Of a DNA stretch of 54,968 bases, positions 24,239 to 40,481 are shown piece after piece (the stretch's first letter is position 1; each line of letters starts with the position of its first letter). Origin of the DNA: a virus (taxonomy: Duplodnaviria > Caudoviricetes). Both the position numbers and the translations under genes were made by a program. Where the stretch lies: the IMG/VR virus record IMGVR_UViG_3300014167_000001, positions 1-54,968 of that record. One strand, given 5' to 3'. Under the pieces are notes generated by a model. The model was not told where the DNA came from and made no database searches. It worked only from the letters and a program-made list of their open reading frames with translations.

Positions 24239-24268
24239 GTGAGATTCCTTGTGTTATCGAGGGAGCAA

Positions 24269-24295
24269 CCCGCGCGGGCCTTGCGGTCCGCGCGG
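24269..24295 (-). terminator. GCAA-loop hairpin downstream of the coat gene (terminator/attenuator)
   Basis: CCGCGCGGACC-GCAA-GGCCCGCGCGG on the minus strand; weak U tract. Confidence 0.5.
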
Positions 24296-24312
24296 ATCAA
24301 GCCTCAGTCAGA

Positions 24313-25581
24313 TTACGCCGGCTGGTGGATGACGCGGACCGCGAGTTCGGGGTACGCGAGCACTTCGCCAGAGATGGTGTCCAGTCGGGCCGGCAGGAGA
24401 TCGTTGGTCGGATCCCACTGCTGCGCGAACCGGATGTTGTAGCCCTCGAAGGACTCCTGCGCCGTGAACTTCACGAGCGCCGACAGATCGAGCATCGGCG
24501 GGTTCGCAAACACGATCGCGTCGCGATACCACGCGAGCGACTGCTTGATGAGCTGACCCGAGACGCCGGCCGTGGTGCCACCCATGACGGTGATCGCCGC
24601 GGTCGCACCGGGCTGCGAGTCCACGTTCTGGTACGCGCCGCCGGTGATGATCGCCGGAGAGATCGACAGAGCCGCGATCGCGCCGCCGGAGTCCGAAACC
24701 GTCGTGTTGACCACGAACTGCTTCAGGCGACCGAGCGAAATCTTCGACTCCGGGTCCACGTCGTTCACGCCAGCGATGGTGATCACGTCACCCGCGTTGA
24801 CGGTCGTGGTGCCCGAGGCCCAGCCGTTGGTCGAGATGGTCTGCGACGCGACGAACGCGTTGCCAGCGCCCGTCTGGCCCTGCCCACCGCCGTTCATGGC
24901 CGGCGTACCGCCGGTCACGACACCAATGGTGTGCGCCGGCAGCTTCGTGTTGCGGAACGCAACGAAGCCGGCGACCTTGTCGCTGATCACGCCTTCGAGC
25001 CACTGGTCAGAGACCGTGCTCTCGGGATTGAACAGGCCCTTGTTGTCGAGCACGAACTCGTACGACGCCTGCGGGTTCGCAGTCAGCGTGCGGCGGTCAT
25101 CTTCCGGCGCCAGCGTTTCCGTAAGGAACCGCTCGGCCTGAAGGATGTTCGCGAAGTTCACGGCCGTGTTATACGCGCCGCAGAACTTCGGCACGCTGTT
25201 GACCAGCGCGCCCACGTCAACCTCGATCAGCGCGGCCACCTTCGCCATCGCCGGCTCAAGCACCTGCTCCTCGAAGTTGTTCAACAGCATCGCCCGCTCG
25301 ACGGACGTGAAGTTGATGTCCACGCCGCGCTGGTTCGAGACCGAGAGCTGCGCGTACCGCTGGATCGAGTTCTCCGCCGCCATCGTCGCGCCCTTGCGGC
25401 CGACGTACTGGAACGGCAGGCGGATGCTCAGCACCTGACCGAGGATCACACCTTCGATCGGGCCCGGCAGCAGCGACTGGTAGTCGCGGTTCGTGCGGCC
25501 GGTCATGTTGGCCTTGGCGTGCAGCAGCACGAGCGCCTTGCGGGCCACCCACTGTGCAGTCAAGAGGCTATTGGTCGTCAT
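24313..25581 (-). CDS. Major capsid protein (P22 coat-like)
   Basis: N-terminal NSLLT..WVAR.AL..L, NRDY, G..L.IRLP, GDVITIAGV, C-terminal RLD...G.....PELA. Confidence 0.92.
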   Translation of the reverse strand: MTTNSLLTAQWVARKALVLLHAKANMTGRTNRDYQSLLPGPIEGVILGQVLSIRLPFQYVGRKGATMAAENSIQRYAQLSVSNQRGVDINFTSVERAMLLNNFEEQVLEPAMAKVAALIEVDVGALVNSVPKFCGAYNTAVNFANILQAERFLTETLAPEDDRRTLTANPQASYEFVLDNKGLFNPESTVSDQWLEGVISDKVAGFVAFRNTKLPAHTIGVVTGGTPAMNGGGQGQTGAGNAFVASQTISTNGWASGTTTVNAGDVITIAGVNDVDPESKISLGRLKQFVVNTTVSDSGGAIAALSISPAIITGGAYQNVDSQPGATAAITVMGGTTAGVSGQLIKQSLAWYRDAIVFANPPMLDLSALVKFTAQESFEGYNIRFAQQWDPTNDLLPARLDTISGEVLAYPELAVRVIHQPA

Positions 25582-25608
25582 TTTTCTTCGCCTTCTGAGT
25601 TTTTCGGA

Positions 25609-26637
25609 TTACCGCATGGCGGCGCGCATCTTCTGGCGCTCCATCCGCGCTGCGATCTTTTTCCCGCGCTCGTTGGCGACCCACTCGTCCATGCTCATAT
25701 CGCTCGGGGCCTTTGAAGGGCCCGGACCGGACGGGACGGGGGTCGGCGGCGGCGGTGCGTTGGTAGAGGACTTCTGCTTCGGGGGTGTGGGCTTCGCTGC
25801 CGCAGGAGCCGGAGCCGGGGTGCTGAGCTGCGCTTCGAGTTTGCCGATCTGCACGAGCTGCTGCTCCCGGGGCATCCGCGAAATGCGCGCGGCGAGATCC
25901 GGATGAGTCGCGAGATGGACAGTGATCTTGGCGCCAGCGTCAGAGAACACGACAGCGCGCGCGGCGGATTCGTCCAGCTTGGGCAGGTTGGGGTTAGCAA
26001 GCGCCGCGCGTAGAGCGACATCGTCGCCCACCAGCGTATCGACGCTGGTCGAAAATTTCGCGCGAGCTGCTTCCACCGTCTGCTTCTGCTGGGCGCCCGT
26101 GAGGGCCGCCTCAACACGCTTGTCGACCTGTCTCTGCAGCCACTCGTTCTGCTGCTGCGAGAACTGGACCGGGTCGAACCCGACACTTTCCAGAGTAGGG
26201 GCGGGGTCATCTGCGGGCGGAGCTGTCGGCGCGGGGGCGGCCGCGGGTGCCGGCGCAACGCCAGCTTTCGCCTCAAGATCCTTCAGTCTCTGCTGCAGAT
26301 GCTCGCCGTAGGACCGGAGAGCGTCACGCTCGACAATCAAACCCTCGATGCGATCCCGAGCGCGGCCGCCGGGAGCAGGAGCAGCCGGAGCTGCATCACC
26401 GTTACCGTCGTTCGTCGCTTCGCTGTCAGGAGCAGCGGCTGCGGGTGCTGAATCCGCGGTGTCAGCAGAAGTCTCGTCTCCTACCGGAACGGCCGGGTCC
26501 GAATCAGGTGCCGGGGCGGACGACGCCTCGGGCTGTGCCGGCGCTGAAGGCGCACTGGCCGGCGGAGTGGGTGCCGGCGCTGACGCGGCCGGGGCGGATT
26601 TTTCGTAGGCAGCAAGGTCTTCACGTGAAAAAGCCAT
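25609..26637 (-). CDS. Scaffolding protein
   Basis: Pro/Ala/acidic N-terminus, RI..L..ER coiled coil, IGKLEA and MSMDEW motifs; between portal and coat. Confidence 0.8.
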   Translation of the reverse strand: MAFSREDLAAYEKSAPAASAPAPTPPASAPSAPAQPEASSAPAPDSDPAVPVGDETSADTADSAPAAAAPDSEATNDGNGDAAPAAPAPGGRARDRIEGLIVERDALRSYGEHLQQRLKDLEAKAGVAPAPAAAPAPTAPPADDPAPTLESVGFDPVQFSQQQNEWLQRQVDKRVEAALTGAQQKQTVEAARAKFSTSVDTLVGDDVALRAALANPNLPKLDESAARAVVFSDAGAKITVHLATHPDLAARISRMPREQQLVQIGKLEAQLSTPAPAPAAAKPTPPKQKSSTNAPPPPTPVPSGPGPSKAPSDMSMDEWVANERGKKIAARMERQKMRAAMR

Positions 26638-26707
26638 TTTGAAACTCCAGCGCGGGTATTCGATCCCGCGAAAACGTGCTCACCGAGTTTGAACCAATCC
26701 AAAACTG

Positions 26708-28789
26708 TTAGGGCGCCGACTCTCCCTTGGCCGCAGCCTCTTCGCTGAGACGCGCGGTGGCGTCGGCGGAGTTGCCGGCGATCTTCTGGGCCGCGATCAG
26801 GTTGGCGAGGTGCTTGCCTGCCGACTCGATGATGCGGTCATGCTGGTCGAGCGGAATCTGCTGCGCCTTGCTCTGCTGGATCGCGGCGCCCGCCTTGTCG
26901 CGGGCCGTGAGCGCCTGCAGCCGAGCCAACTGTGCCGTCTGCATCGGGTCGGGTTGCGGCGGCGGGGGCAGCGTCTTCTGCTCTTCCTTCGTCGGCTGCA
27001 CGATGCCCTGCTGAATGAGCGGGATTCGCAAGCGACGCGTGAGTTCGTCGGAGTCGAGCATGTCGATGTTCTTCGACAGGAGATCCGGCGCCATCTGCGC
27101 GATCGACGGCAGCACTTCCGCGGCCTCGATGAGGGTCGCGAGCGCTTCCTGCCGGGCGGTCTGGAAGCTGGGGCCGATCGTGACCTTGCAGGAGTAGCTC
27201 CCTTTCGAGAGGTCGTGGAGGACGTCCCCCGACTCCGGGTCCGGGCCGTTCAGCGTGACCAGCTTCTCGACGCCGTCCTCGCCGATGATCTGCTCAACAC
27301 GCTCGCTGTCGTAGACAGACGGGATCATGTCGATCAGCATCTCCCACGTGAGCTGTAGCGCGTCGCCGAAGCCATCGACGAACTCGAAGCTGCCGAGGTC
27401 GGAGCGGCGCGTGTGCTGGACGAGCGCCTTGCCGCTGACGCGATTCATCTCCTCGGAGTTGCCGAGCGCCGGGTCAAAGAATCCGGTCGTCGCCTGAATG
27501 TCGGAGATCGCCTGCTGCGCAAGCGCGATCGCGCCAGACGGCATGTCGAGCGGCGTCGTGCGCTGTGGCATACCCCCCGCGCTGACCGCCTTCGGGTCGA
27601 CGTTGTACGGCAAGTACGGACGGGAAGCTGTATTCGCCTGCGCCCACTGGTCTTCGTACCCCTTGATCATCGTCTCGGTCGCGAGATACGGGGCCTTCGG
27701 GATGAGAGCGCTGCGCTCGATCATGTCCGACGCCCGGCTGTTGTAGCTCCGCTGCGCGTCCTTCGCGTGGCGGATCATGCTCTGCAGCTTCTTGCGGCCC
27801 TCGATATTGATGTAGCGACCCGGGACGCGCACGATTGGAATCCGCTTCCAATTGTAGTAGATCGGGCCTTCGAGAATCGTGCCGCCGTTGCACTTCACCC
27901 ACATGACGCGCCACTTGAGCACGGTGCGGGTCTTCTTCATGCGGCGGGCTTTGTCCTTGCCGTGGCCCAGCGCTTCGAGCTGCTTCTCGACGCTCTTCGC
28001 TTCCTCATCCCAGTCGATGACGTCGCCGTTCGTCATCAACGCGATCGTCTTCTCGTACGGCACGCGCTCGTAGTATTCGACGACGCGAACTTCCTTGTCC
28101 GTGAACCAACCGTACGAGTCGCGCGAGATCGAGAAGCTGGTGTCGGAGCCCGCGTTCGGGTACAGCGTGTTGTGCTTGACCTTCGAGATGCGCGTGCCGA
28201 TCATGCCCCACATGGCGTCGCCCGCACACGGGTCGTTGCACTCCGGATCCCAGATGACGGTCTGCGGGTTCGCGACGTCCTTGATCCGCAGCACCTGATC
28301 CCACGTGTCATCACCCGCGTACTCAGGAGCGATGTACCAGACGCCGAAGCCGCCGGCCACCGCGAACTTGTACTGGTTCTTATAGATGACCGGCGCGCGA
28401 CTCGCGTCCTCGATGCTGCGGCACAGGCCGCCGAGCATCTCGGCAGTCTCGCCCTTCGCGCCTTCGGACGCGGGCCGAACCTTGCCATTCGGCCGCGTCT
28501 GGCGCATGTCGGCGACAACGAGGTTCACCGGGCCGATCACGCGGTTGAACGTGTAGCACGGCTTGCCCTTGCGGGCTTCGAGCACGACCGGATCCCACTG
28601 CCCCATCGTCTCCGCGTTGTAGACGAAGTTGAGATCTTCCGAGTGGAGCCGACGATTCTCCTCGAACGCGCCGACGCCTTCGTCGTATTTGTTCCGGATC
28701 CGCGAGAGGAGTTCTTCCGTCGTGGTCGGATCAAGTGCGGTTTCCCCGGTTGGGGGTTGGAGATTCGGCGGGGTCCGGTCGTCGCTCAC
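26708..28789 (-). CDS. Portal protein (P22-like)
   Basis: ED..F....QW, KPC.TFN, V.WDP, IRHAKDAQR.YN, SGKA, GPSF.T.RQE; GTG start 28789 with GAGGA RBS. Confidence 0.92.
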   Translation of the reverse strand: MSDDRTPPNLQPPTGETALDPTTTEELLSRIRNKYDEGVGAFEENRRLHSEDLNFVYNAETMGQWDPVVLEARKGKPCYTFNRVIGPVNLVVADMRQTRPNGKVRPASEGAKGETAEMLGGLCRSIEDASRAPVIYKNQYKFAVAGGFGVWYIAPEYAGDDTWDQVLRIKDVANPQTVIWDPECNDPCAGDAMWGMIGTRISKVKHNTLYPNAGSDTSFSISRDSYGWFTDKEVRVVEYYERVPYEKTIALMTNGDVIDWDEEAKSVEKQLEALGHGKDKARRMKKTRTVLKWRVMWVKCNGGTILEGPIYYNWKRIPIVRVPGRYINIEGRKKLQSMIRHAKDAQRSYNSRASDMIERSALIPKAPYLATETMIKGYEDQWAQANTASRPYLPYNVDPKAVSAGGMPQRTTPLDMPSGAIALAQQAISDIQATTGFFDPALGNSEEMNRVSGKALVQHTRRSDLGSFEFVDGFGDALQLTWEMLIDMIPSVYDSERVEQIIGEDGVEKLVTLNGPDPESGDVLHDLSKGSYSCKVTIGPSFQTARQEALATLIEAAEVLPSIAQMAPDLLSKNIDMLDSDELTRRLRIPLIQQGIVQPTKEEQKTLPPPPQPDPMQTAQLARLQALTARDKAGAAIQQSKAQQIPLDQHDRIIESAGKHLANLIAAQKIAGNSADATARLSEEAAAKGESAP

Positions 28790-29031
28790 GTCGGCAGTTC
28801 CTCCACGATGATGCGGCGCTGACCAACCGCGACGTAGGCGTCGGTAGTCTTGCCGGCGGGTACGACGACGGGCGCCACTGGCGCCGGCTTCCACCTCACC
28901 ACTTTCTGCGCCTCACCAGTTGGCTTGCCGTGCTTGTCGAGCACGGGTTTCGTGCTGATGTCGGCGTCCTCGAAGCTGACGCGCATGGCGTTTAGCTGAC
29001 TGTGGTTCTTCACGGAAATCTGCGTAGTCAT
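28786..29031 (-). CDS. Hypothetical protein
   Basis: 81 aa with GAGGA RBS; its stop overlaps the portal start. Confidence 0.65.
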   Translation of the reverse strand: MTTQISVKNHSQLNAMRVSFEDADISTKPVLDKHGKPTGEAQKVVRWKPAPVAPVVVPAGKTTDAYVAVGQRRIIVEELPT

Positions 29032-29053
29032 AGTGTCCTCACCTGTTTGAAAA

Positions 29054-30613
29054 TCAGCCGCTCCACACGGGCGACGGTGTCCAGTCGAACCAGCGTTTGC
29101 CGACGACGATGTTCGGCTCGACCTTCGCGCGCTCGCGCCCGCTCATCATGAAGTACCGGATGGCGTCCATGAGGTGGTCGTTCTGTTTCACGATGTTGCC
29201 TTTCTCGTCGCGGCGGTAGAGGCGGTACTCGTTGCGGGTGTTCGTGCAGGTGCTGAACACCTTGAACTGGCCCTGACTCATCGCCTCCCACACCGTGTAG
29301 ACGCCGGCCTCGCGCGCGTTATTCGCCGGCTCGACGTCGAGCCCGAGCTGCAGGTACAGCTCCAGCATCTGCTCGCCGTCTTTCTGGCTTCGGCCGCGTG
29401 CGGCCGGGTCGATGACGCCGGGCAACCACTTGCCGCGCGTGTGGATCGCAGCCGCGTGCACAGAGGGCTCGGCCTGCCCGCGATAGTATTCGTCGTACAT
29501 CACGACGCCGCGCGTCTCGGGGTTGATGGCGAAGAACCCGGCCGCCGTGCGATTCCAACCAACGTCGAGCGAGAAGCCGCGCGGCCAATGCCGCGGGATC
29601 TCGTACGGCGGAATGATGATGTCGCTCTCGGGAATCTGGTAGATCGCGCCAGCCCCGAGCTGCGGAACGCCCTTCGTGCGCGCGTCGCGTTGCCACGGCG
29701 GGATGCTGGCGAGGATCGCGGCCTTCTGAGATTCGCTCAGGTGCGGCACGTCCTCCCACGAGACCATGATCGCGACCTTGGAGCCGCTGCTCTTGGGCGT
29801 CTCTGTGCCGCCGTCTGTCGGCGTCGGCGCCAGTTCCGGCAGGTAGAGCAGCATCAGCTTCGTGAGGCCCTGCAGCGGCGTGGCTGTGAGGAACACGATG
29901 CCGTTCACGGTCATGGTGCGGAGCAGGCACTCCGTGTAGATGTCCTCGGGCGGCTCTTCGTCCGGCCAGATGACATGCTGTGACGTGCCTTGGAACGCTT
30001 CGCGGCCCTGATCGTAGCTCTTGAACTGCAGCGTCGAAACGCCGCCGGTCGGCACGTGCCGAACGAAAACCGTCTCGACGGCGTCCGCGAGTCCGTGCTT
30101 CACGGTCGCGCGCAGGATCAGCTCGCCGCGGATGAGGCCCGTACCTTTCGCGGCCTCGTCGCCGGGCGCGCCGATCATGAGGCGCTGGATGATGTCGCGG
30201 ACGTTCTTGCCGGTGTCGCCCGCGGCCCACGCCTCGACCGGGTGATCAAAGCGCCGGCCTTCCCACCAGTCCGGATACTCGCCCGTCAGGTGGTAGGTCA
30301 TCTCGCAGCCGCCAGCGATCGTCTTGCCCGACCGGTTGCCGCCGAACATGCCGCGCTCGTTGTGCGTGCGGCCGAGGCGGAAGAATTGCATCTGCTTCGC
30401 GTAGGCTGCGCGGATCTCCGGGGTACTAAAGTAGGTCCGAATTCGGTTCCTGCTCTCGTCCCGCTCGATCGCTTCGAGCATCTGTAAGAGCTGCAGCTTC
30501 TCGCTTCGGCTCAACAATTTCGTACTCAACGTCGATAGCGCCGAGTCTGTCGATGATGCGGTCACCGAACTTTGCGAGGAGTTTGGTGAGTCGGTTGTCG
30601 AGCTGCTGGTCAT
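29054..30613 (-). CDS. terL: Terminase large subunit (true start probably TTG near 30529 or later)
   Basis: Walker A GGNRSGKT, FKSYDQGRE.FQG, Walker B WPDEEP, LTATP, nuclease DVGW and DHLMDA.RY. Confidence 0.95.
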   Translation of the reverse strand: MTSSSTTDSPNSSQSSVTASSTDSALSTLSTKLLSRSEKLQLLQMLEAIERDESRNRIRTYFSTPEIRAAYAKQMQFFRLGRTHNERGMFGGNRSGKTIAGGCEMTYHLTGEYPDWWEGRRFDHPVEAWAAGDTGKNVRDIIQRLMIGAPGDEAAKGTGLIRGELILRATVKHGLADAVETVFVRHVPTGGVSTLQFKSYDQGREAFQGTSQHVIWPDEEPPEDIYTECLLRTMTVNGIVFLTATPLQGLTKLMLLYLPELAPTPTDGGTETPKSSGSKVAIMVSWEDVPHLSESQKAAILASIPPWQRDARTKGVPQLGAGAIYQIPESDIIIPPYEIPRHWPRGFSLDVGWNRTAAGFFAINPETRGVVMYDEYYRGQAEPSVHAAAIHTRGKWLPGVIDPAARGRSQKDGEQMLELYLQLGLDVEPANNAREAGVYTVWEAMSQGQFKVFSTCTNTRNEYRLYRRDEKGNIVKQNDHLMDAIRYFMMSGRERAKVEPNIVVGKRWFDWTPSPVWSG

Positions 30614-31460
30614 TCAGTTTCTCCGGGTTGCGCACGTTGAGGTCGAGGCGTTCCCGATACTCGGGCATCTTCGCACTCAAGACCTTCGTGAGCAGTTTGT
30701 CGTTGCCGGCGAGAGCCATCTGGATCGCGCGCTCTTCGAGCGCCTTCGCTGCCAGTGGATCCGCGCCCCTCACGGCGTCGGCAAAATCCGTGTTCCGCTC
30801 GATCTCCGCGTAATACTCCGATGGAGTCACGACGATCGCGTCGCGCGCGGTCGCGGTGTTGCCCGTGTCGACGTAGACCTGAATGAAGCGGGCGCGCTTC
30901 TCGGGCGTCCACTCGTACGGGCCGTATTCTGTTGGCGTGCGCTTGACGCCGAGCCGGTCCTCCAGCTCGTTCACCGCGGCGCGAAACACCGCGGAGTACG
31001 ACAGGCGACCGAGCACCTGCGCAGTCGTCATGCCGGCGGTCTTCGCCGCCTCGTCGAAGTTGCGCAGGTGCGCGTACGCTTCGAGGAATTTCTTCTCCGC
31101 CTTGTCGGGCTCGACGGGAGAAGGTGCCACCACGATCGGCGAGGCGTTTGGGATCTGCTCGCGTTGCTTGTAAGGGCGTTTGTAGTCGGGCGTCCCGCCC
31201 GCCTTAGCGCCGATCGTGGGGCGACCGTTCTTGAGCCGGTGGCAGTCGACGCACAGGCGCGGATTGCTCACGTAGCGCGGGGCCATGTGTCCGTACCGAC
31301 ACACGCTGGTGTCGTAGAACTGCGGCCAGCCGCGGGCTCGCGCCTCCGCGAGCGACACGAGTCGGCTCGGGAGGTTGTTGTAGAGGTCCGGCCGTCCGTC
31401 GCCAGTCAACGGCGCGATCGTGCTCGGATCAATCGGGGGGAACTCAGCCTGTTCCGCCAA
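30426..31460 (-). CDS. Putative terminase small subunit with N-terminal Cys/His domain
   Basis: Immediately upstream of terL; helical C-half with LEERAIQMA..G.DKLL..L....PEYRE; N-terminal C..GH...RY....C..C. Confidence 0.65.
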   Translation of the reverse strand: MAEQAEFPPIDPSTIAPLTGDGRPDLYNNLPSRLVSLAEARARGWPQFYDTSVCRYGHMAPRYVSNPRLCVDCHRLKNGRPTIGAKAGGTPDYKRPYKQREQIPNASPIVVAPSPVEPDKAEKKFLEAYAHLRNFDEAAKTAGMTTAQVLGRLSYSAVFRAAVNELEDRLGVKRTPTEYGPYEWTPEKRARFIQVYVDTGNTATARDAIVVTPSEYYAEIERNTDFADAVRGADPLAAKALEERAIQMALAGNDKLLTKVLSAKMPEYRERLDLNVRNPEKLNDQQLDNRLTKLLAKFGDRIIDRLGAIDVEYEIVEPKREAAALTDARSDRAGREQEPNSDLL

Positions 31461-32238
31461 GCCAGTTCCCGTGCCGGTCGTAACCGGCGCTCTGCTGCCA
31501 CAGCAGCGCTTCGTGCTTCGAGTCGTTCGTCGTGCCGTAGCACGCCTGTTCCCAAACCCAGACGAGTTCCTCGCCCTCGAAGTCCCACTCGATCTGGTTG
31601 CGCGGGCTGAACTCGACGATGTCGCCGACCTTCACGCGCATCGGGCGCGTCTTGCCGGTCTCGTCGCCGTCCTCGAAGTAGAGGGAGCGCTCGGTGTTGA
31701 GGTGACCCTGCATGAGGTCGAAGCGCACCTTGCGGCGCTGACGACGACCGGGGCCTGTCGCGACGACGAGGCCCTTCTGCAGCGAGATGCCAGTCGTCCA
31801 GAGGACGGGGTGCTGGTACTCGAAGCGCTTGATCAAGAGCCGGTCACGCAGCGGACGCACCAGTCGATTGATGCGCGCGAGGTGCGGCGGCAGCTCATGG
31901 GCGGCAGTCGACGCGCTGTCGAGGGCGGCGCCCAACGCCGCGTCGAAGTCGGTGCCAACCACGAGGTCGACTTCGCTGTCGCGCAGGATGCGGATCGCCT
32001 CGCCGTTGTACACCGACTCCATGCCGACCGCGGCGCCGAACACGACGACGTCGCCGGGCTGCGTCTTCATCGGAGCCGCGCCACCGTCGATCAGGGGGCG
32101 CCCGGGTCCGACGGCGAGCACGGTGCCGATGAGCGTACGCTGCCAGTCCGGCAGGAGCACTGCGGCCTTCACAGGCACGTAGCGGACGGCGATCAGCTCG
32201 CCGAGTAGTTGCATCGGAAAAGTAGACACGAGCCTCAC
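31444..32238 (-). CDS. Tandem (double-domain) GroES/Cpn10-like co-chaperonin
   Basis: Domain 1 GTVLAVGPGR..PM...PGDVVVF; domain 2 RPLRDRLLIKR..G.VVATGPG...PMRVKVGDIVEF. Confidence 0.85.
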   Translation of the reverse strand: MRLVSTFPMQLLGELIAVRYVPVKAAVLLPDWQRTLIGTVLAVGPGRPLIDGGAAPMKTQPGDVVVFGAAVGMESVYNGEAIRILRDSEVDLVVGTDFDAALGAALDSASTAAHELPPHLARINRLVRPLRDRLLIKRFEYQHPVLWTTGISLQKGLVVATGPGRRQRRKVRFDLMQGHLNTERSLYFEDGDETGKTRPMRVKVGDIVEFSPRNQIEWDFEGEELVWVWEQACYGTTNDSKHEALLWQQSAGYDRHGNWLGGTG

Positions 32239-32247
32239 CTCGGGGTC

Positions 32248-32649
32248 TTAGGGAACAGTGCCGTTCGGCGTCTGAATCGCCATGATCTCGATGATCGAGA
32301 TAGCGTTCATGGTGAACGGTTGGCCGGTCACGGAGTCAACCGCGACTGCCTGAATCCAAAGCTGGCAGAGCTGCGAGCCCTGTCCAATCGACGGATATGT
32401 GAACGCGAGCACGGAGCCCGGGATCTGCAGCGTCATCGCCGACCCGGTCGGCGCGATGGGCGTGCCGGGCACCATGTTGGCGACGTTCGTGATGTCGTCG
32501 AGTTGCCACGCGATCGACGTCGGCGTGACCGCGGTCTGCGTGTGGTCGAGGAACTGCATGTCCACGAAGACATCCGTCCCCGCGTACACGCGGTTGTCGA
32601 CGTACGGGGCGGTAGGTTGCCCGTACAGTCCGCGGTTGTTGACGGTCAC
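32248..32649 (-). CDS. Hypothetical beta-rich protein (possibly virion)
   Basis: 133-aa ORF in the late operon with genome-like codon usage. Confidence 0.6.
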   Translation of the reverse strand: MTVNNRGLYGQPTAPYVDNRVYAGTDVFVDMQFLDHTQTAVTPTSIAWQLDDITNVANMVPGTPIAPTGSAMTLQIPGSVLAFTYPSIGQGSQLCQLWIQAVAVDSVTGQPFTMNAISIIEIMAIQTPNGTVP

Positions 32650-32710
32650 GCGTTAGGCCACGTCGGCCAGACGTTGACGAAGATGTCGCCCGCGCGCACG
32701 GTGACGATGA

Positions 32711-33169
32711 TCACAGGAGGCCGCTCCGCTTCTCTTTGATCTTCGCGGGCTTCTCACCCAGCTTCATGCCTTCCGGGTGAACCTTGCCGGCGTGACGGAT
32801 GACGTGGTCCGCGCGAGCGTGCACCTTCTGGTGCTCTTCGCTCGTCAGGCGCCCCTCGATCCAGTTGCGCGTCGCGTTCTTCTTCACGTACATCGCGTCT
32901 TCCTTGAGCTGCGCAGCGACGCTGGGCGGCTTCATGGGCATTGGCGACATCGCCATCGGCGCGGCCTTCGGCGTCTCCGCCTTCACGCCCTTCGAGGCGG
33001 CGCGCTCGCCCACCTGCGTTGCACCGGTCTCGCCGCGCTTGCCGTTCTTGGCGTTGGCCTTCGGGTTCTTCGGCGGGTACTCGCCGGTCTTCTTGCCGGA
33101 CGTCTTCGGCTCTTTCGGCGGCTTGCCGAATGCAGCCGCGAGCAGCGGCGACGGTGATTCCTTAGCCAT
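32711..33169 (-). CDS. Lys/Pro-rich basic hypothetical protein
   Basis: Start MAKESP overlapping the upstream stop; very basic. Confidence 0.6.
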   Translation of the reverse strand: MAKESPSPLLAAAFGKPPKEPKTSGKKTGEYPPKNPKANAKNGKRGETGATQVGERAASKGVKAETPKAAPMAMSPMPMKPPSVAAQLKEDAMYVKKNATRNWIEGRLTSEEHQKVHARADHVIRHAGKVHPEGMKLGEKPAKIKEKRSGLL

Positions 33170-33371
33170 GATGTCCGGCTCCGAGTTTCTTGTTCGCACG
33201 AGCTACGATTCTCTCGTACTCGAATTTGGTGAGGTGACCGTCCGACCACATTTGCTTGGCGCGCGCCTTGGCGTTCGCAGCGTGCGCCTTGTCCTCGATC
33301 GGGTACGACCGACCGGGGCCGGCGAACTCCGAGCTGGGGATGCGCTTGCGCGCGGCGGCGTTGAGTTTCAC
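33162..33371 (-). CDS. Small basic phage protein (DUF6582-like)
   Basis: R..IP.SEFA.P.R.YPI.D.AHA.NA.AR motif. Confidence 0.65.
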   Translation of the reverse strand: MKLNAAARKRIPSSEFAGPGRSYPIEDKAHAANAKARAKQMWSDGHLTKFEYERIVARANKKLGAGHHG

Positions 33372-33538
33372 GGCGTCTTCCTCTTGCCTTCGGCCCAGCG
33401 GCTCAGGCGCTTCTTGCGCGCCTGCCGCTGTTCCGAGTAGCCAATCGCGACCGCCTGCTTCGGCGGTGTCCCGGCGCGCACCTCGGTCGCGATGTTCTTC
33501 GAGCGCGCCTTGTTAGACGCGCTCTTGATGAGCGGCAT
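33368..33538 (-). CDS. Small basic phage protein (56 aa, not in the ORF track)
   Basis: MPLIKSASNKARSKNIATEVRAGTPPKQAVAIGYSEQR..., a MPL.K..S...NI..E...G.P.KQAVAI pattern; GTGA overlap downstream. Confidence 0.7.
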   Translation of the reverse strand: MPLIKSASNKARSKNIATEVRAGTPPKQAVAIGYSEQRQARKKRLSRWAEGKRKTP

Positions 33539-33547
33539 GGCCGGGGC

Positions 33548-33796
33548 TTAGCGCTTCTCGACCCCGAGATCGCCGATCGGATCCTTGCAGCCGCCGCTGT
33601 GCTTCAGCGCGCGCTCGTAGATCCCGTGGGCGGCGCGGTTGAGATCCGCTTCCTTCGAGCCGCTGTCGCGCTCGGCATCCTGCACGACGTTCTTGAACGC
33701 GCCGCTCGGATGACGCGTGATCCCCGGGTTCTCGGACGACGGGTGCTTCTCGACTTCCTTGTACGCGCGGTTGGCGCGCGGAACGACCTTGGGCAT
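33548..33796 (-). CDS. Hypothetical protein
   Basis: 82 aa with GAGGA RBS. Confidence 0.6.
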   Translation of the reverse strand: MPKVVPRANRAYKEVEKHPSSENPGITRHPSGAFKNVVQDAERDSGSKEADLNRAAHGIYERALKHSGGCKDPIGDLGVEKR

Positions 33797-33823
33797 GGGA
33801 AAATCCTCTGTTGAAAAACGCGA

Positions 33824-33847
33824 GTCAAAAGTGCGGGCGAACCCGCG
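33824..33847 (-). terminator. Rho-independent terminator
   Basis: GCGGG-TTCG-CCCGC followed by ACTTTT on the minus strand. Confidence 0.55.
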
Positions 33848-33853
33848 TTGGTG

Positions 33854-34285
33854 TTAGAGCGAGCCGGAACCGACCGACTGGAATACGACCGTGCCCGGGT
33901 TCGAGACCGTGACGACGAAGTCGCGGAACGAGTTGGTGATGAGGGTCGCCGTGCCGTTGATCGTCACGCCGCTGCCGCCGGTCAGGGTGACCGTGCCGGC
34001 ATTGGTGTTGCTGATGCGGACGTAGTACGTGACGCCCGCGCCAAACACGTTGGCCGGCTCAAGCACACCCGCGGCGCTCAGCGCGGCGATGATGTTCGCG
34101 TAGATCGCGGCAGCGGTCGGGAGCTGCAGCGGGCCAGCGTTCGACGAGGACGAGTAGTTCTCAGCCGCGCCGCTGACGGCGTTGACCGGAACCGCGGTGA
34201 CCGCGAACGCGCCAGAGTAGTTGTAGCTCGGGAGCGCGGTAATGCCGGGATAGAAGTCGTCTCGGAAGACGCCAAGGGTAGTCAT
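33854..34285 (-). CDS. Putative virion decoration protein
   Basis: LPTAA, ISN...GTVTLTGGSGVTI.G pattern; AGGAG RBS. Confidence 0.6.
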   Translation of the reverse strand: MTTLGVFRDDFYPGITALPSYNYSGAFAVTAVPVNAVSGAAENYSSSSNAGPLQLPTAAAIYANIIAALSAAGVLEPANVFGAGVTYYVRISNTNAGTVTLTGGSGVTINGTATLITNSFRDFVVTVSNPGTVVFQSVGSGSL

Positions 34286-34305
34286 GGGTCAATTCTCCTG
34301 TTTGA

Positions 34306-34716
34306 TCAACGCCCGTTACCCGGGGCGACTGTGACGATGGTCGGGCCCGCGCCGGAAGCGATCGCGGACACGAACTGGGGATTGCCGGGAACCGAGACGA
34401 CGCGCGTCTGGTTCGGTGCGACCGTGATGCCGCCCATCGCACCGTCGCCCGCGAGCACTGCGGCAGCAACCGCTGCCGCTGCCGTCGCGCCGAAACCGAC
34501 GCAGACGTAGAGCGTCGTGCTCGTGTTGGTGATCGCGAACTGATTCGGCACCGAGCCCGGCGTCGCGGTCGAGCCGCCCGGAGGCGTCGGGAGCTGCACG
34601 CCCGCGTGCGCCGAAGCGATGACCGACAGCGTGAGGTCGGTCAGGCCCGGCACCGCCGTCGCGCTGTTGACGAACAGCGGCTGGAATGCCTGCGTGAGCT
34701 GGTTGACGTCGGTCAT
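34306..34716 (-). CDS. Putative virion decoration protein
   Basis: Ala/Gly/Thr-rich beta protein ending VAPGNG. Confidence 0.55.
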   Translation of the reverse strand: MTDVNQLTQAFQPLFVNSATAVPGLTDLTLSVIASAHAGVQLPTPPGGSTATPGSVPNQFAITNTSTTLYVCVGFGATAAAAVAAAVLAGDGAMGGITVAPNQTRVVSVPGNPQFVSAIASGAGPTIVTVAPGNGR

Positions 34717-34732
34717 GGGCGGAGGGCCTCGG

Positions 34733-34761
34733 TTGCAAAAGAAAATTGGTTGTGTTATAAT
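34733..34761 (+). promoter_or_regulatory. Near-consensus sigma70 promoter
   Basis: TTGCAA-17 nt-TATAAT with extended TG in an AT-rich patch. Confidence 0.8.
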
Positions 34762-34814
34762 GCACGGGCCGGCTAGGACCGGCGCCGTTCTTTAAATCAC
34801 GAGGAGCAAGTCAC

Positions 34815-35003
34815 ATGGCAGCAAGTCGACTACGGCACACGCCGCTCACCCGCGAGCAGTTGTACGACATCTACGATCGCGCGACGTGCGCGGTCTACGA
34901 TGCGATGGACGCGGAGCCGAACGAGCAGCAATCATCGCAGCTTGAGGCGATGTACCTGCGCCTCTCGGAGATGCGAGAGGCGTACGACGGACTCGGCGGA
35001 TAA
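34815..35003 (+). CDS. Small acidic protein in an autonomous (moron-like) cassette
   Basis: 62 aa, GAGGAG RBS, own promoter and terminator, antisense to flanking genes. Confidence 0.75.
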   Translation: MAASRLRHTPLTREQLYDIYDRATCAVYDAMDAEPNEQQSSQLEAMYLRLSEMREAYDGLGG

Positions 35004-35008
35004 GAGAC

Positions 35009-35042
35009 AGGCCCGCACCCCGGGAGGAGTGCGGGCCTTTTT
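35009..35042 (+). terminator. Rho-independent terminator
   Basis: AGGCCCGCAC...GTGCGGGCCT stem followed by a T tract. Confidence 0.85.
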
Positions 35043-35053
35043 GTGTCGTCAGC

Positions 35054-35128
35054 TCAACGCCGCGGAGCGCGCGGCGTGATGTAGCAGAGCGCTACGATCG
35101 CGAGTGCGACGAACAGGGCGTGGATCAC
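35054..35128 (-). CDS. Putative 24-aa membrane peptide
   Basis: MIHALFVALAIVALCYITPRAPRR; GTGA overlap with the upstream stop. Confidence 0.4.
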   Translation of the reverse strand: MIHALFVALAIVALCYITPRAPRR

Positions 35129-35370
35129 GACGCCCTCTGCTGACGACGCCGCGCGAGCAGCGCGGCGATCTTTGCGGCTCGCGCCGCGTCCTTCACCTCA
35201 TCCTCGTACCAGAGGATGGCGCCCTCCAGCCGCACCGGCAGCGGCGCCGCGCGCTCGCGCAGCAGCCGACCCAGCTCGGCGTGCGTGCACTGGTAGAGCG
35301 TCGCGAGCTGGTCGCGCGTCATGGTCGGAACCGGCCGGGCCGGCGTGGCGACTGCGGTCTGCTCGGTCAT
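35125..35370 (-). CDS. Excisionase/AlpA-like winged-HTH protein
   Basis: MT.DQLA..Y.....L.R......P.PVRL....LW...EV. Confidence 0.65.
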   Translation of the reverse strand: MTEQTAVATPARPVPTMTRDQLATLYQCTHAELGRLLRERAAPLPVRLEGAILWYEDEVKDAARAAKIAALLARRRQQRAS

Positions 35371-35648
35371 ACGATCACCTTCGACTTCGGGACTGGTGCC
35401 GGCTCGGCACCCGGAGGCATCGCGCTGTGTGCCTGTATGAGCAGCACCTGCGCCGTGATGCGGCAGTTCTTCGCCATCACCTGCAGACGCTCGGCGAAGT
35501 GCTCGGCCGTCTCCAGCTTGCCGTTGTTGGCGATCAGCTCGGAAACGAACGCGGGCGCGACGGCGCGCATCATCTCGGACAGGTGGAACCGGTACGCCTG
35601 CAGCAGCTCGGCCGGTGTCTTCAGGCTGTTGGGTGTGTCGTCGCTCAT
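35367..35648 (-). CDS. Hypothetical protein
   Basis: MSDDTPN... start; ATGA overlaps at both ends. Confidence 0.65.
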   Translation of the reverse strand: MSDDTPNSLKTPAELLQAYRFHLSEMMRAVAPAFVSELIANNGKLETAEHFAERLQVMAKNCRITAQVLLIQAHSAMPPGAEPAPVPKSKVIV

Positions 35649-36022
35649 CGCGCCAGCCACAGCCACACGGCCAGCGTCCACGCGAGGTACCAGCCGGCCC
35701 CGCAGATGGCGAGGATGACCGCGGCGACGCCGAGCCGCTCGATGCGGGTCATCGGCTCGCCGTCCGGCTCGTACCGGGCATTCGGGCCCATCCATCGCCG
35801 GGGCCGATCGTCCCACCCGGTCGCCCGGGTGCCGACGAACTCGAAGCCTTGCTCGGGCTCGGTCCGCCCGCAGCGGCACTGCGGGTAGGCGATGCAGCGC
35901 GGGGCGTCCGCGAGGGCGCACCGCGGGTTGAGGGGAGTGACCGCCCGGGACCACGGCTTGTCGCCGGGGTACCCGGGCGGGGCATTCGGACGTGGCTCCG
36001 CGAGCCCGGCGATGCCGGCCAC
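35645..36022 (-). CDS. Hypothetical membrane protein
   Basis: Cys cluster followed by a C-terminal TM helix; start uncertain. Confidence 0.45.
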   Translation of the reverse strand: MAGIAGLAEPRPNAPPGYPGDKPWSRAVTPLNPRCALADAPRCIAYPQCRCGRTEPEQGFEFVGTRATGWDDRPRRWMGPNARYEPDGEPMTRIERLGVAAVILAICGAGWYLAWTLAVWLWLAR

Positions 36023-36259: not shown

Positions 36260-36787
36260 TCACTGTGGTTGAGGGCGGTACGTCCGCCCCTTGACGATGT
36301 CGCAAACCGTAGCCTCGCACACGTCGAAGGCGTTTGCAAGCGTTCGCTGGCTATCCCCGGCCAGCCAGCGCAGCCGGATCTCCTCCGCCTGCCCGTCCGT
36401 CAGGACGCGCAGCTCGGGGCGCGGCCGGCCGCGGCGGGTCAGGCCGTTCCGGACCCGGTCCTTGCCGTTGGCGTTCGACGACCCCCAGTAGAGGTTGTCG
36501 AGCCGGTTGTCGTTCCGGATGTCGTTCCGGTGCAGCCCGTGCGGGGAGCCGAACGGCGGGTCGCCGCGGAACGCAAGCAGCACCAGCCGGTGCACCTTCT
36601 CGACGACGCGGCCCTTCTCCGGGTGCTGCAGGTTGACCAGCAGGTAGCCGCGGGTGTCGGGGAACGGCGCCACGAGCCCGGCGCCGATCTTGCGGCGGCG
36701 CGTCAGGAACGAGTGCCGGTAGACGGCGCCGCGGTCGCTCACTCGGTAGCGTCCGTCGAAGCCGGGAACGTCGCGCCAGTCTTCCAT
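36260..36787 (-). CDS. NUMOD4-HNH homing endonuclease
   Basis: EDWRDVPGFDGRY.VSD.G (NUMOD4), VHRLVL.AF, H.ND...DNRL.NL.WG...N, C-terminal HTH. Confidence 0.92.
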   Translation of the reverse strand: MEDWRDVPGFDGRYRVSDRGAVYRHSFLTRRRKIGAGLVAPFPDTRGYLLVNLQHPEKGRVVEKVHRLVLLAFRGDPPFGSPHGLHRNDIRNDNRLDNLYWGSSNANGKDRVRNGLTRRGRPRPELRVLTDGQAEEIRLRWLAGDSQRTLANAFDVCEATVCDIVKGRTYRPQPQ

Positions 36788-37585: not shown

Positions 37586-37849
37586 ATGGACAGGCGAGCA
37601 TTCATCAAGGCATCAGCGGCGACGCTCGCGCTCGCACCGGTCGCGGCGCTCGCGATCAGGCCAGCACGGCCGCGCGGCACGCGCTACACCATGCGCGAGT
37701 TCCGGATCGCTGCGCCGGAGCAGCCGCTCCTCGCGAGCGAGCTGTACATGCGACGGCAGTGGATCGACCCGAACACGCACGAGCTGCGATGCGAGTGGTT
37801 CACACGAGAGCAAGTGATGGAACGCTACCCGTACATGCTCCATGACTGA
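37586..37849 (+). CDS. Small protein with twin-arginine (Tat)-like signal peptide
   Basis: MDRRAFIKASAATLALAPVAALA; GAGGTG RBS. Confidence 0.65.
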   Translation: MDRRAFIKASAATLALAPVAALAIRPARPRGTRYTMREFRIAAPEQPLLASELYMRRQWIDPNTHELRCEWFTREQVMERYPYMLHD

Positions 37850-40481
37850 GCCGCAGGCGCTGGGCGCCACACAGGAAGACTGGGACCACTGGGATCTCGT
37901 GCTCGGCTGCGGGCGCGACCTGTTGCCTGTGGTGCCCGACCCGAAGGCCACGCCAGCACCTGATAGCAAGGTCAAGGCGTTCGGCAAGATACCGAGCCGC
38001 TACGACGCGGAAGGCAACGCGGTCGGCATCGCCAAGTGGACCGAGCGCGAGATCACGCCCGAGGCGATCGCGCACTGGCGCAAGGACGCGCGGCTGGGCA
38101 TGTGCGTGCGATCGAGCGCGGTGCGTGCGATCGACTGCGATGTCGACGACGCAGAGATGGCGTGCGCGATACTCGACACGATCAACGCGCACGCACCGAA
38201 GCTGCCCATGCGACAGCGCGAGGACAGCCAGAAGTTTCTGCTCGCGTTCCGCGCACCGGGGCCGCTGCACAAGCGCATCATCAGCACCAAGCACGGGCGC
38301 ATCGAGCTGCTCGGCGATGGTCAGCAGTTCGTGGTCGCAGGCACGCACCCGAAGGGCGCGCGCTATGAATGGCCCGATGGACGGCCGAACGAGCTGCCTG
38401 AGCTGACGCTCACACAGGTGGACGCGCTGTGGTCCGCGCTCGAAGCCAAGTTCGGTCTACCAGATACGAGACCAAAAGCGGCCGAACAGTCTATAACGCG
38501 AGATACCACGAAATCTCAGTCGGCGCCGCTGAACTTACAGGCGTTCACGCGCGAGGTGTACGACGACCTGCAAAGCGCGCTCGCATGGCCGCCGCTCGTC
38601 GCTGCAGCCGCGGACAATACGACGTGGAGCGAGATCGGCTACGCGCTGCTGTGCCTCAACGAGATCGGCTGGGATGAGTGGCGCAAGTTTTCACGCAGCG
38701 CACCGAACTACACACCGAGCGCACCCGAGGAATGGTGGGAAGCGCACAGGCACCAGCAGCCACGCAGCGACTATCGCCACGTCTTCACGATGGCGAAGCG
38801 ACTCGGCTGGCGCACGCTGGTCGAGGCGGATGCGTTCCACGATACGACCGAGCCCGTGGGCGAGCCGCCCGCGGAGCTGGTGGTCGATGACACGCCGAAG
38901 GCGCACTACCTGTGCACCGACCTTCGCAACGCGCAGCGGCTGCACGCGGCGTATGGCAGCACGCACCTGATCGTGGTCGGCGGCGTGTTCTACGCTTGGA
39001 TGGGCACGCACTGGCGGCGCGATGACGCCGAGGCCGCGCGCTGTGCCTCGCGACTGAGCACGATCGTGCAGGGCGAGGCGCAGAACTGGCGCGAGCAGTT
39101 CAAGGCGCTGCTCGCCGGAGCAGACGACACCATCAAGAAGGCGCACACCAACATGGTGACGTCGTCACGCCCTGACCAGAGTGCGGGACGCGCGGCACTG
39201 AAGAACGACAAGCTGGGCACGAAGCTGCTGAAGGCGCTGAAGACGGCCGAGGCGCTGGAGGCGTGGGCCAAGCGCTGCGAGATGGCGGGCACGATCGATG
39301 CTGCGCTGCGGTTGCTGCGCACCTCGCTGAGCACCGAGAGCGTCGTGCTGGATAGCGACCGCAATCTCGTGAACTGCCTGAGCGGCACGATAGACGCACG
39401 CACGGGCGAGATACGCGCGCACGATCCGAAGGACTACATCACGCGCTGCGCCCCTGTTGAATTCAAGCCCGATGCACGCGCCGATCGCTTCGAGCTGTTC
39501 GTGAGCGAGATCATGGGCGGCGACGAGGCGCGCGTCGAGTTCCTGCGCCGCTGGTTCGGCTACTCAATAACCGGAGACATCCGTGAGCAGAAAGTCCTCC
39601 TCCACATTGGCCCGGGCGCGAACGGCAAAACGACGCTCGTCGACGCGATCAAAGACGTCTTCGGCGACTACGCTCACACCGGAGCACCGGGCCTACTTAC
39701 TGTCTCTGCAGGTGATCGGCACCCAACGGAGATTGCGGATCTTGCAGGACGCCGCCTTGTTACTGTCCACGAGACTGATGACGGAGCCGTCCTTCGCGAA
39801 GGGCTGCTCAAGCAAGCAACTGGCGGCGATCGACTCACTGGTCGATTCCTGTTCAAAGATTTTTTTGAGTTTGCTCCGACCCACAAACTCCAGCTCCTCA
39901 CCAACCACAAGCCCGTCGTTCGAGGACAAGACCACGCGATTTGGCGCCGCCTGCTACTCGTAACGTATGGCATCAGCTTCGGTAGCGCCGAGGAGATCGC
40001 GATCGGCAAGGCGCAGAGCCCGAAGGATGTCGCGCTGCCGCTGAAGCTGCTGAAGGAACGTGAGGGCATCTTCGCGTGGGTCATGCGCGGCGCACGTGAG
40101 TGGTACGAGTTGGGGCTCGCGCCGCCTGCCAGCGTGATCGAGGCGAGCGAGGCGTATCGCGCCGAACAGGATCGCGTCGCCGAGTTCGTCGGCGATCGCT
40201 GCATCCTCGGCCCCAACGAGTGGACAGAGTTCGGTGGCCCGAGCGGCATCTACCCGCACTATGTGCGCTGGTGCAAGGAAAACGGCTACCATCCGCTCGG
40301 CAACCGCGGCTTCATCAACGAGCTGCAGCGCGTAGTGCCGGGCTACCAGCGCGTGGAGCAGATGACACGCGTCGACGGCATTCGCAAGACCGTGCGCGGC
40401 TGCAAAGGCGTGCGCGTCAACCCGGACGAGGACGGCGGCGGCATGTTCGTCTCCGAATCAAACAACGAGGATCTGCTATGA
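37842..40481 (+). CDS. Primase-polymerase / PriCT / D5-like SF3 helicase
   Basis: N-terminal AIDCDVD and QFVVAGTHP..RYEW; PriCT-like W..IG.AL; D5_N; Walker A GPGANGKT, KQATGGD, TNHKP, AIWRR. Confidence 0.92.
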   Translation: MTEPQALGATQEDWDHWDLVLGCGRDLLPVVPDPKATPAPDSKVKAFGKIPSRYDAEGNAVGIAKWTEREITPEAIAHWRKDARLGMCVRSSAVRAIDCDVDDAEMACAILDTINAHAPKLPMRQREDSQKFLLAFRAPGPLHKRIISTKHGRIELLGDGQQFVVAGTHPKGARYEWPDGRPNELPELTLTQVDALWSALEAKFGLPDTRPKAAEQSITRDTTKSQSAPLNLQAFTREVYDDLQSALAWPPLVAAAADNTTWSEIGYALLCLNEIGWDEWRKFSRSAPNYTPSAPEEWWEAHRHQQPRSDYRHVFTMAKRLGWRTLVEADAFHDTTEPVGEPPAELVVDDTPKAHYLCTDLRNAQRLHAAYGSTHLIVVGGVFYAWMGTHWRRDDAEAARCASRLSTIVQGEAQNWREQFKALLAGADDTIKKAHTNMVTSSRPDQSAGRAALKNDKLGTKLLKALKTAEALEAWAKRCEMAGTIDAALRLLRTSLSTESVVLDSDRNLVNCLSGTIDARTGEIRAHDPKDYITRCAPVEFKPDARADRFELFVSEIMGGDEARVEFLRRWFGYSITGDIREQKVLLHIGPGANGKTTLVDAIKDVFGDYAHTGAPGLLTVSAGDRHPTEIADLAGRRLVTVHETDDGAVLREGLLKQATGGDRLTGRFLFKDFFEFAPTHKLQLLTNHKPVVRGQDHAIWRRLLLVTYGISFGSAEEIAIGKAQSPKDVALPLKLLKEREGIFAWVMRGAREWYELGLAPPASVIEASEAYRAEQDRVAEFVGDRCILGPNEWTEFGGPSGIYPHYVRWCKENGYHPLGNRGFINELQRVVPGYQRVEQMTRVDGIRKTVRGCKGVRVNPDEDGGGMFVSESNNEDLL
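39583..39963 (+). CDS. Candidate overprinted gene (+1 frame inside the helicase)
   Basis: GGAG RBS 6 nt before GTG 39583; helicase-frame third positions become A/T-rich over this span. Confidence 0.4.
   Translation: MSRKSSSTLARARTAKRRSSTRSKTSSATTLTPEHRAYLLSLQVIGTQRRLRILQDAALLLSTRLMTEPSFAKGCSSKQLAAIDSLVDSCSKIFLSLLRPTNSSSSPTTSPSFEDKTTRFGAACYS

Follow-up and report, generated by a model that had tools for sequence, protein, structure and literature searches.

To our knowledge, two-subunit co-chaperonin lids and tandem GroES chains are known, outside the phages described here, from plastids. Among phages, GroES-fold proteins such as T4 gp31 and RB49 CocO are made by viruses without a GroEL gene and are presumed to serve capsid folding; gp31 is a single-domain homo-oligomer with a longer mobile loop. 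Plastid Cpn20 is a functional tandem lid, the P. falciparum protein being able to replace GroES in E. coli (PMC3542282). In plastids, such lids combine tandem with single-domain subunits into hetero-oligomers, formed by Cpn10(1) and Cpn20 in Arabidopsis and by CPN11, CPN20, and CPN23 in Chlamydomonas (PMC4242682; 10.1101/432013). A survey of viral GroES proteins (Marine et al. 2017, PMC5649160) describes, in 336 of 1479 sequences, a mobile-loop triplet whose second or third residue is charged or polar, and the lack of a roof hairpin in some. We analyze here IMG/VR virus record IMGVR_UViG_3300014167_000001, the genome of an uncultivated tailed phage that is referred to throughout, at its full length of 54,968 nucleotides (nt), as the window. 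One open reading frame (ORF) of this genome, 31444..32238 on the minus strand, encodes two GroES-like (Cpn10) domains in a single chain. Sequence comparison indicates that two paralogous Cpn10 genes, which usually form an adjacent, coupled pair, are truly fused into one chain in this ORF, and that this two-paralog GroES module is conserved in a large group of uncultivated phages, the window holding its rare fused form. The finding is therefore broader than first noted, in that it concerns a conserved two-paralog module and not an isolated oddity.

Two GroES-like domains in one chain

The ORF spans 264 codons from a GTG at 32238 to a stop codon at 31444-31446, and residue numbers below follow this frame. 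Its probable start is Met9 (ATG at 32212-32214), which gives a protein of 256 residues; we prefer this codon because the homolog P0005 begins MQLLGELIAV and because it agrees with the public gene call (P0002). The whole protein matches the Pfam Cpn10 family (PF00166) at 54 bits (E 1.7e-14), and each half passes the family cut-off of 21.1 bits by itself, with 28.3 bits for residues 1-102 and 30.7 bits for residues 111-264. It also matches PHROG 3188, annotated as co-chaperonin GroES (E 1.6e-12), and 12 distinct solved GroES/Cpn10 sequences at E <= 5.5e-5, including the tandem Chaperonin 23 of Protein Data Bank (PDB) entry 7ekq, which is matched in two stretches.

The predicted fold agrees with the profile matches. 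An AlphaFold2 model was computed from an alignment of 62 fused and stand-alone sequences of the second domain (alignment A2), in which the region of the first domain rests on six rows; stand-alone rows of the first domain were left out because MAFFT placed these paralogs onto columns of the second domain or split them. The model has a mean predicted local distance difference test (pLDDT) score of 82.3 and a predicted template modeling (pTM) score of 0.53. Residues 1-87 of the model superpose on Xanthomonas GroES (3nx6) with a Z score of 13.2 and a root-mean-square deviation (rmsd) of 1.1 Å over 74 residues, and model residues 117-230 superpose on E. coli GroES with a Z score of 11.6-11.8 and an rmsd of 1.6 Å over 88-89 residues (for 1aon_O, a Z score of 11.6 over 89 residues); the top unrelated fold, the alcohol dehydrogenase N-domain, reaches a Z score of only 5.9. 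Among the Foldseek PDB matches listed, all 33 at E <= 0.001 are Cpn10/GroES chains. The best of them is the tandem Chlamydomonas co-chaperonin 7ekq_Q, which aligns over 238 columns and across both domains (E 7.3e-8). The first-pass annotation, which had been made from the sequence alone, had read the ORF as two GroES-like domains in a Cpn20-like tandem, and both statements hold: each half passes Pfam alone and matches solved GroES as a model, and the tandem chains Q and R of 7ekq are the nearest structural match. Profile and predicted fold together place the fused protein within the Cpn10 superfamily, in which it is a divergent homolog, not an ortholog of cellular GroES.

Domain 1 (D1; residues 9-95, 31954..32214, minus strand) is near-canonical. 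Its roof hairpin, residues 46-63, has the normal length of 18 residues. Its mobile loop (residues 21-34, VPVKAAVLLPDWQR; 32137..32178, minus strand; pLDDT 68-73) was located by alignment to Thermus GroES, in which VKAAVLLPD of D1 aligns with TKGGIVLPD, so that the hydrophobic triplet VLL followed by PD corresponds to IVL-PD; the alignment leaves a two-residue gap in the D1 loop. Across 37 D1 sequences, the family signature LPDWQR reaches a conservation of at least 90%, and a lysine in the middle of the triplet is frequent among D1 relatives (IKL), a trait already known from viral GroES proteins (PMC5649160). The roof hairpin is short by 9 residues in 5 of the 32 stand-alone D1 proteins (L004, L006, L007, L008, and L009; for example L004:3750-3989), which are 78-84 residues long and whose partner proteins still have an enlarged roof. 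Two other stand-alone D1 proteins, L031 and L032 (for example L032:2771-3148), are extended at the C terminus by a stretch with a CxxC…CxxC pattern (CPACGCREFNTGPWLRCVNCH), possibly a zinc ribbon fused to the GroES-like domain.

The linker between the domains (residues 95-116; 31891..31956, minus strand) is rich in alanine, as first described, with 7 Ala among its 22 residues. It has a pLDDT of 51, and its length and sequence differ in every fused relative. It leads into domain 2 (D2; residues 117-264), which opens with an N-terminal helix (residues 117-126; 31861..31890, minus strand), modeled as a helix at model residues 110-118 with a pLDDT of 96 for model blocks 111-130; stand-alone D2 proteins begin with the homologous residues (M-K-L-P-K-x-L...). 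The D2 core (residues 125-238; 31525..31866, minus strand) has the GroES fold and keeps the canonical GroES N-terminal strand, with the motif VRPLRDR (VRPLRDRLLIKR compared with VIKPLGDRVVVKR). The region of its mobile loop comprises 16 residues (139-154, FEYQHPVLWTTGISLQ; 31777..31824, minus strand; pLDDT 68), among which Y, P, and L are near-invariant in the family.

The D2 roof is enlarged. The insertion of about 25 residues reported in the first-pass annotation was found at residues 165-195 (31654..31746, minus strand), where a longer β-meander stands in place of the hairpin. It adds 25 or more residues, is charged, contains a basic RRxRRK and an acidic FEDGxETG motif, and is modeled as extra β strands. 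D2 has 114 model residues, 89 of them aligned to 96 of GroES, and the roof stretch is absent from D1-type proteins (alignment A1). In D2 relatives the insertion can be longer by up to about 20 residues: many of them (for example L017:3932-4552, L024, L038, and L048) have such a longer roof insertion (ISDGPPVLGPGGKVMQFAKSKLSGK). Many D2 relatives also have a second insertion (DFDRVGFPGIGDL) in the last β-sheet, where L021 and L022 add about 20 residues more. The chain ends in a C-terminal tail of 28 residues (237-264; 31447..31530, minus strand; pLDDT 54-60) with the motif LLWQQSAGYDRxGN, which forms invariant or near-invariant columns in 62 sequences and has no counterpart in GroES. The architecture given in the first-pass annotation was thus right as far as it went; it had missed the D2 N-terminal helix, the D2 tail, and the two-gene state that is usual in relatives.

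A conserved gene pair and its fusion

A search of 5.8 billion proteins returned 279 relatives, the best 120 of which were inspected. Query cover of at least 96% was found for four of these 120, namely the window's protein and P0003-P0005 (252-256 residues, 66-72% identical), and one more, P0006, is an N-terminally truncated fragment of a fused protein. The other 115 are proteins of 145-185 residues that match only residues ~110-264, that is, D2 and its tail. In IMG/VR, 72 loci encode a D2 relative, and a D1 homolog (tblastn, 42-61% identical to the D1 of the window) lies directly upstream of D2 wherever the contig extends that far. Of the 72 loci, 61 show both halves; they are separate, adjacent ORFs in 60 of these and fused in L003 alone, and in the remaining 11 the sequence upstream of D2 breaks off within 435 nt. 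The surrounding order, a gene labeled up133, D1, D2, a small-terminase-like (TerS-like) gene, and the large terminase (TerL) gene, is conserved as well, with the TerS-like and TerL genes present in 72/72 loci and up133 in 57/72.

The stop codon of D1 and the start codon of D2 overlap by 4 nt in 36 of the 52 distinct loci with an assignable D2 start; three more loci lack one. A stop/start overlap of 4 nt is a classic arrangement for translational coupling, and the overlap therefore suggests coupled, roughly equimolar synthesis of D1 and D2. In a minority of loci (L017, L018, L026, L048, L054, L062, and L064), a gap of 150-420 nt takes the place of the overlap, and a small extra ORF may have been inserted there.

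At the sensitivity of tblastn, isolated phages lack the D2 family: a search of 50,697 phage records found only two unannotated 'Listeria phage' records, which match 25% of the query. Among the genomes of 185,579 species, there is one real D2 relative, L075 (PLES01000005.1, 53% identity), besides two weak matches of 45 residues. L075 is a 33.9-kb contig binned in a Solirubrobacterales metagenome-assembled genome, either as a binned phage contig or as a prophage, which gives a hint of the host but too little to name one.

Including P0006 and L003, which is 94-96% identical to the window's protein, six fused sequences were found (the window, L003, and P0003-P0006). They are 66-96% identical, their linkers are unlike in length and sequence, and all are in frame. 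When the D2 parts (62 rows) are placed in a quick maximum-likelihood tree, the six lie on one side of a branch with a Shimodaira–Hasegawa-like approximate likelihood ratio test (SH-aLRT) value of 96, and with midpoint rooting they nest among the stand-alone D2 forms. The fusion is accordingly confined to one small clade and derived from the adjacent gene pair. The linker consists of the former end of D1 and the former intergenic or start region of D2: the methionine of the old D2 start survives within the chain in P0005 and P0004, and His-Glu is found in the window. No alternative internal start for a separate D2 product was found in the window, although no systematic test for one was made.

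Because 60 of 61 related loci have two genes, one could suppose that this phage also has two and that a stop codon or a frameshift was lost in assembly or sequencing. We consider such an artefact very improbable. Five further fused sequences, from other assemblies, stay open across linkers of different length and sequence, and six in-frame fusions with unlike linkers are not what a lost stop codon would produce. A DNA contig assembled independently (run X2) spans 31300-32400 without a gap and differs by 12 substitutions, and in a more distant contig (run X4) the indels lie in the linker only, sum to -15 nt, and keep the frame. Two overlapping contigs from an RNA library cross the junction unchanged (31485-31997, 100% identity), which documents presence in the library, not transcription. 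The lost stop codon or pair of separate genes that the first-pass annotation had named as a possible error is thereby excluded for this lineage.

How the fused protein compares with described systems can now be set out. With bacterial GroES (1aon_O, Thermus 1wnr, and 3nx6), it shares the β-barrel of both domains, the xRPLxDR strand in D2, and the triplet-PD sequence and normal roof in D1; it differs in having two domains, shorter loops, the D2 helix, a roof extension of at least 25 residues, the 28-residue tail, and no adjacent groEL. With plastid and apicoplast Cpn20/CPN23, it has in common two GroES domains per polypeptide and the same mismatch to sevenfold symmetry. Unlike those of Cpn20, however, its halves are ~21-27% identical and structurally specialized, they are joined by a linker of about 22 residues and a helix, and the model places the domains differently (21 Å). 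Both halves are closest to stand-alone phage genes, and the fusion occurs in one clade of six sequences, which does not fit common descent with Cpn20; the likeness is one of architecture only, with an independent origin. Clusters of algal Cpn20 give only weak matches, E 1e-7 or worse, to D1. A search of a representative library found no full-length fused representative of the family, the window's protein falling under a 160-residue D2 representative. Of 10 tandem matches in two stretches that we looked up, four are clusters with an algal source or name (transcriptome records or chloroplast Cpn20 names in three cases), two go by 'chaperonin GroES' alone, and four are unnamed.

The comparison extends to phage co-chaperonins. 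Like T4 gp31 and RB49 CocO, the fused protein has the GroES fold and belongs to a phage without GroEL. Its match to gp31 (1g31_A, Z 8.8) is nevertheless weaker than that to GroES (Z 11.6-13.2), it has two domains with both loops shorter, and, since gp31 is described as lacking the roof hairpin (PMC5649160) whereas D1 has a normal and D2 an enlarged roof, it is not of the gp31 type. The co-chaperonin GroES gp096 of the isolated Cellulophaga phage phi18:3 (200 residues, NC_021794 41458-42060) is also about twice the usual length and is encoded two genes upstream of TerL. Its model (S0A356 in BFVD) aligns to ours over 271 columns. In sequence, though, no specific relationship links it to the window's protein (hhalign E 0.039, probability 1.3), and it lacks the D2 motifs; Pfam recognizes its C-terminal domain only, the N-terminal half being GroES-like at the level of the fold. 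The same phage also has a separate Cpn10 of 85 residues (NC_021794 31117-31338). Of the 47 BFVD matches at E <= 0.001, 4 (183-304 residues) extend over both domains, gp096 among them, and by these predicted structures the tandem GroES-like architecture is not unique to the window's clade among viruses. The metagenomic viral GroES proteins described in PMC5649160 resemble those studied here in being divergent, in their altered triplets or roofs, and in lying in many cases on contigs without GroEL. Tandem or fused GroES is not mentioned in the main text of that article by word search, in which hits to 'duplicat' concern reads. In the literature searched, we found no description of a phage tandem GroES or of a two-gene phage co-chaperonin; the supplements of PMC5649160, which lie outside that search, might list such proteins.

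A candidate lid for the host chaperonin and its alternatives

The first-pass annotation had proposed a specialized lid for, or inhibitor of, the host GroEL, which is plausible. The reading that we favor, and to which we give about an even chance, is that the fused protein is a hetero-oligomeric co-chaperonin lid for the host GroEL, analogous to Cpn20 and of independent origin. D1 and D2 would sit side by side in one GroES-like ring or dome, and D1, perhaps with D2, would dock through the mobile loops on the GroEL of the host, since the phage has none of its own. Consistent with the absence claimed at the outset, the PF00118 profile finds no GroEL gene in the complete genome of the window, and none is present in any of the six complete genomes of the clade that were examined (6/6; 55-61 kb). 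Through its altered roof and rim, D2 would adapt the folding chamber to late proteins of the phage. Among these, the coat protein of the P22 type suggests itself as the candidate client, given that the P22 coat protein has folding mutants that interact with GroEL/S (PMC2267774). Ring assembly, the alternation of D1 and D2, docking on GroEL, and the coat protein as client are all steps that we infer.

Several features of the gene pair speak for a joint complex. Fusion of D1 with D2 suggests that both products act in one complex, and the loss of the D1 roof in 5 of 32 proteins beside an enlarged D2 roof fits a shared dome. The conserved paralogous pair is kept as separate genes in 60 of 61 loci; the hetero-oligomer most directly implied is therefore one of D1 with D2, not one of the phage protein with host GroES.

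Other observations weigh against a lid on GroEL. The D2 loop (HPVLW) has no clear counterpart of the glycine and hydrophobic triplet, and both mobile loops are, as the first-pass annotation had said, shorter than in cellular GroES, D1 spanning 87 residues compared with the 93 of 3nx6. Within D2, conservation is highest in the C-terminal tail and in the two roof motifs, one basic and one acidic; such elements play no part in known lids, a hint that D2 may have another partner, either besides GroEL or in its place. All nine matches to NCBIfam GroES models (NF0015xx) fall below their cut-offs, at 14.8-50.8 bits relative to 96-136, the best being 50.8 against 120. The fixed 1:1 ratio of D1 to D2, set by coupled genes and obligatory in the fusion, cannot be divided into seven, and a lid with seven members could be completed only by leaving one domain dangling or by recruiting a subunit of host GroES. 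A lid of three fused chains plus one domain, supplied by the dangling half of a fourth chain or by host GroES, is possible, given that plastid Cpn20 has the same mismatch and yet works. The two domains of the model are not ring neighbors (rmsd 21 Å to 7ekq_Q over both); their placement is weak evidence, because at a pTM of 0.53 a monomer model does not show reliably how its domains are arranged. A complex prediction of the E. coli GroEL apical domain (191-376) with the full fused protein, made with alignment A2, scored 0.00 in both runs, which counts neither for nor against binding.

A different proposal is that D1 and D2 form a GroES-fold ring that docks not on GroEL but on another ring machine, where it would act as an assembly factor or inhibitor; the candidates are the phage's portal, either of the terminase subunits, and a host protease of the ClpP type. 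An obligatory 1:1 stoichiometry favors even-numbered assemblies, and the D2 motifs RRxRRK, FEDGxETG, and WQQSAGYDRxGN are more conserved than the mobile loop. The place of the pair directly upstream of the terminase genes is invariant in 72/72 loci and recurs for the unrelated gp096 of phi18:3, although a position beside late genes is equally expected of a helper in capsid folding. The top structural match, 7ekq, is itself a complex of a co-chaperonin with ClpP, and a co-chaperonin ring is reported to bind chloroplast ClpP and to inhibit it (10.1101/2021.07.26.453741). Yet D1 keeps a GroES-like loop with its hydrophobic triplet followed by PD, and for both cores GroES is by far the nearest fold (Z 11-13). 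We consider a ring on a target other than GroEL unlikely, and about as unlikely the specific form in which an even-numbered 1:1 ring of D1 and D2 would cap a ClpP-type protease, as the chloroplast Cpn11/20/23 does, or the portal or terminase, with the D2 roof motifs and C-terminal tail doing the binding. The protein could also turn the host chaperonin to the phage's advantage by blocking it, its charged roof and tails plugging or locking GroEL so that host folding is shut down or a GroEL-dependent defense is disarmed. The enlarged, highly charged D2 roof insertion and the extra tail would suit such a role, and the phage carries other host-takeover functions, such as the S-adenosylmethionine (SAM) lyase domain of a giant virion protein described below. 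Phages with HK97-type or P22-type coats generally gain from GroEL, however, in keeping with the interaction of the P22 folding mutants with GroEL/S (PMC2267774); moreover, the gene lies in the late structural block and not among early takeover genes, and the literature searched holds no precedent. We consider a blocker of GroEL improbable.

The packaging module and the wider genome

The window has direct terminal repeats and 66% G+C, and CheckV rates the genome as 100% complete. It has no close isolate among phage records, as megablast of positions 24000-36000 (12 kb) gave no match. The fused gene heads a block of packaging and morphogenesis genes, the late structural genes, and is followed in order by the small-terminase-like gene, TerL, and the portal gene, so that the terminase neighborhood described in the first-pass annotation stands, with the small-terminase-like gene coming before TerL. 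The small-terminase-like gene (30426..31460, minus strand) overlaps the 3' end of the double-GroES ORF by 17 nt; its assignment comes from weak matches to phrog_4044 and phrog_1081, and tblastn finds it directly after D2 in all 72 loci. At 344 residues the protein is unusually long, and it has a Cys-rich stretch in its N-terminal part. The large terminase subunit (29054..30613, minus strand; Pfam Terminase_6N and Terminase_6C; phrog_2) is of the T4 type, and the portal is ~33% identical to portals of P22-like phages. The major capsid protein (24313..25581, minus strand) belongs to the P22 coat family (PF11651, 90.5 bits; phrog_283) and is the candidate folding client, a role that we infer.

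Three further features of the genome lie outside this block. An ORF of 1839 residues in the tail/injection region (7677-13196, minus strand) contains a SAM lyase domain (PF23780, residues 425-545, 62.7 bits) and a DUF7178 domain (residues 1492-1713); its product may be a giant virion protein that is ejected and brings along its own SAM lyase against restriction. Within it and antisense to it, ARAGORN calls an 88-nt tRNA-Arg(gcg) (12374-12461, plus strand), the only tRNA call of the genome and probably a false positive. An HNH endonuclease with a helix-turn-helix tail (36260-36787, minus strand) adjoins a divergent primase/helicase of 879 residues (37842-40481, plus strand), a junction that marks the switch from the structural block on the minus strand to the replication block on the plus strand.

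Overall, a large uncultivated clade with P22-type coat and portal proteins carries a specialized pair of GroES paralogs at the head of its packaging module, and one lineage has welded the pair into a single chain. This natural fusion is a ready-made equimolar construct with which an asymmetric lid can be set against a sevenfold chaperonin. It can reveal the effect of an enlarged, charged roof on the folding chamber, and it can tell whether phages tune the host GroEL for their coat proteins beyond the case of T4 gp31. If the target should instead prove to be something other than GroEL, the pair would represent a new function for the co-chaperonin fold, in phage head assembly or in host takeover.

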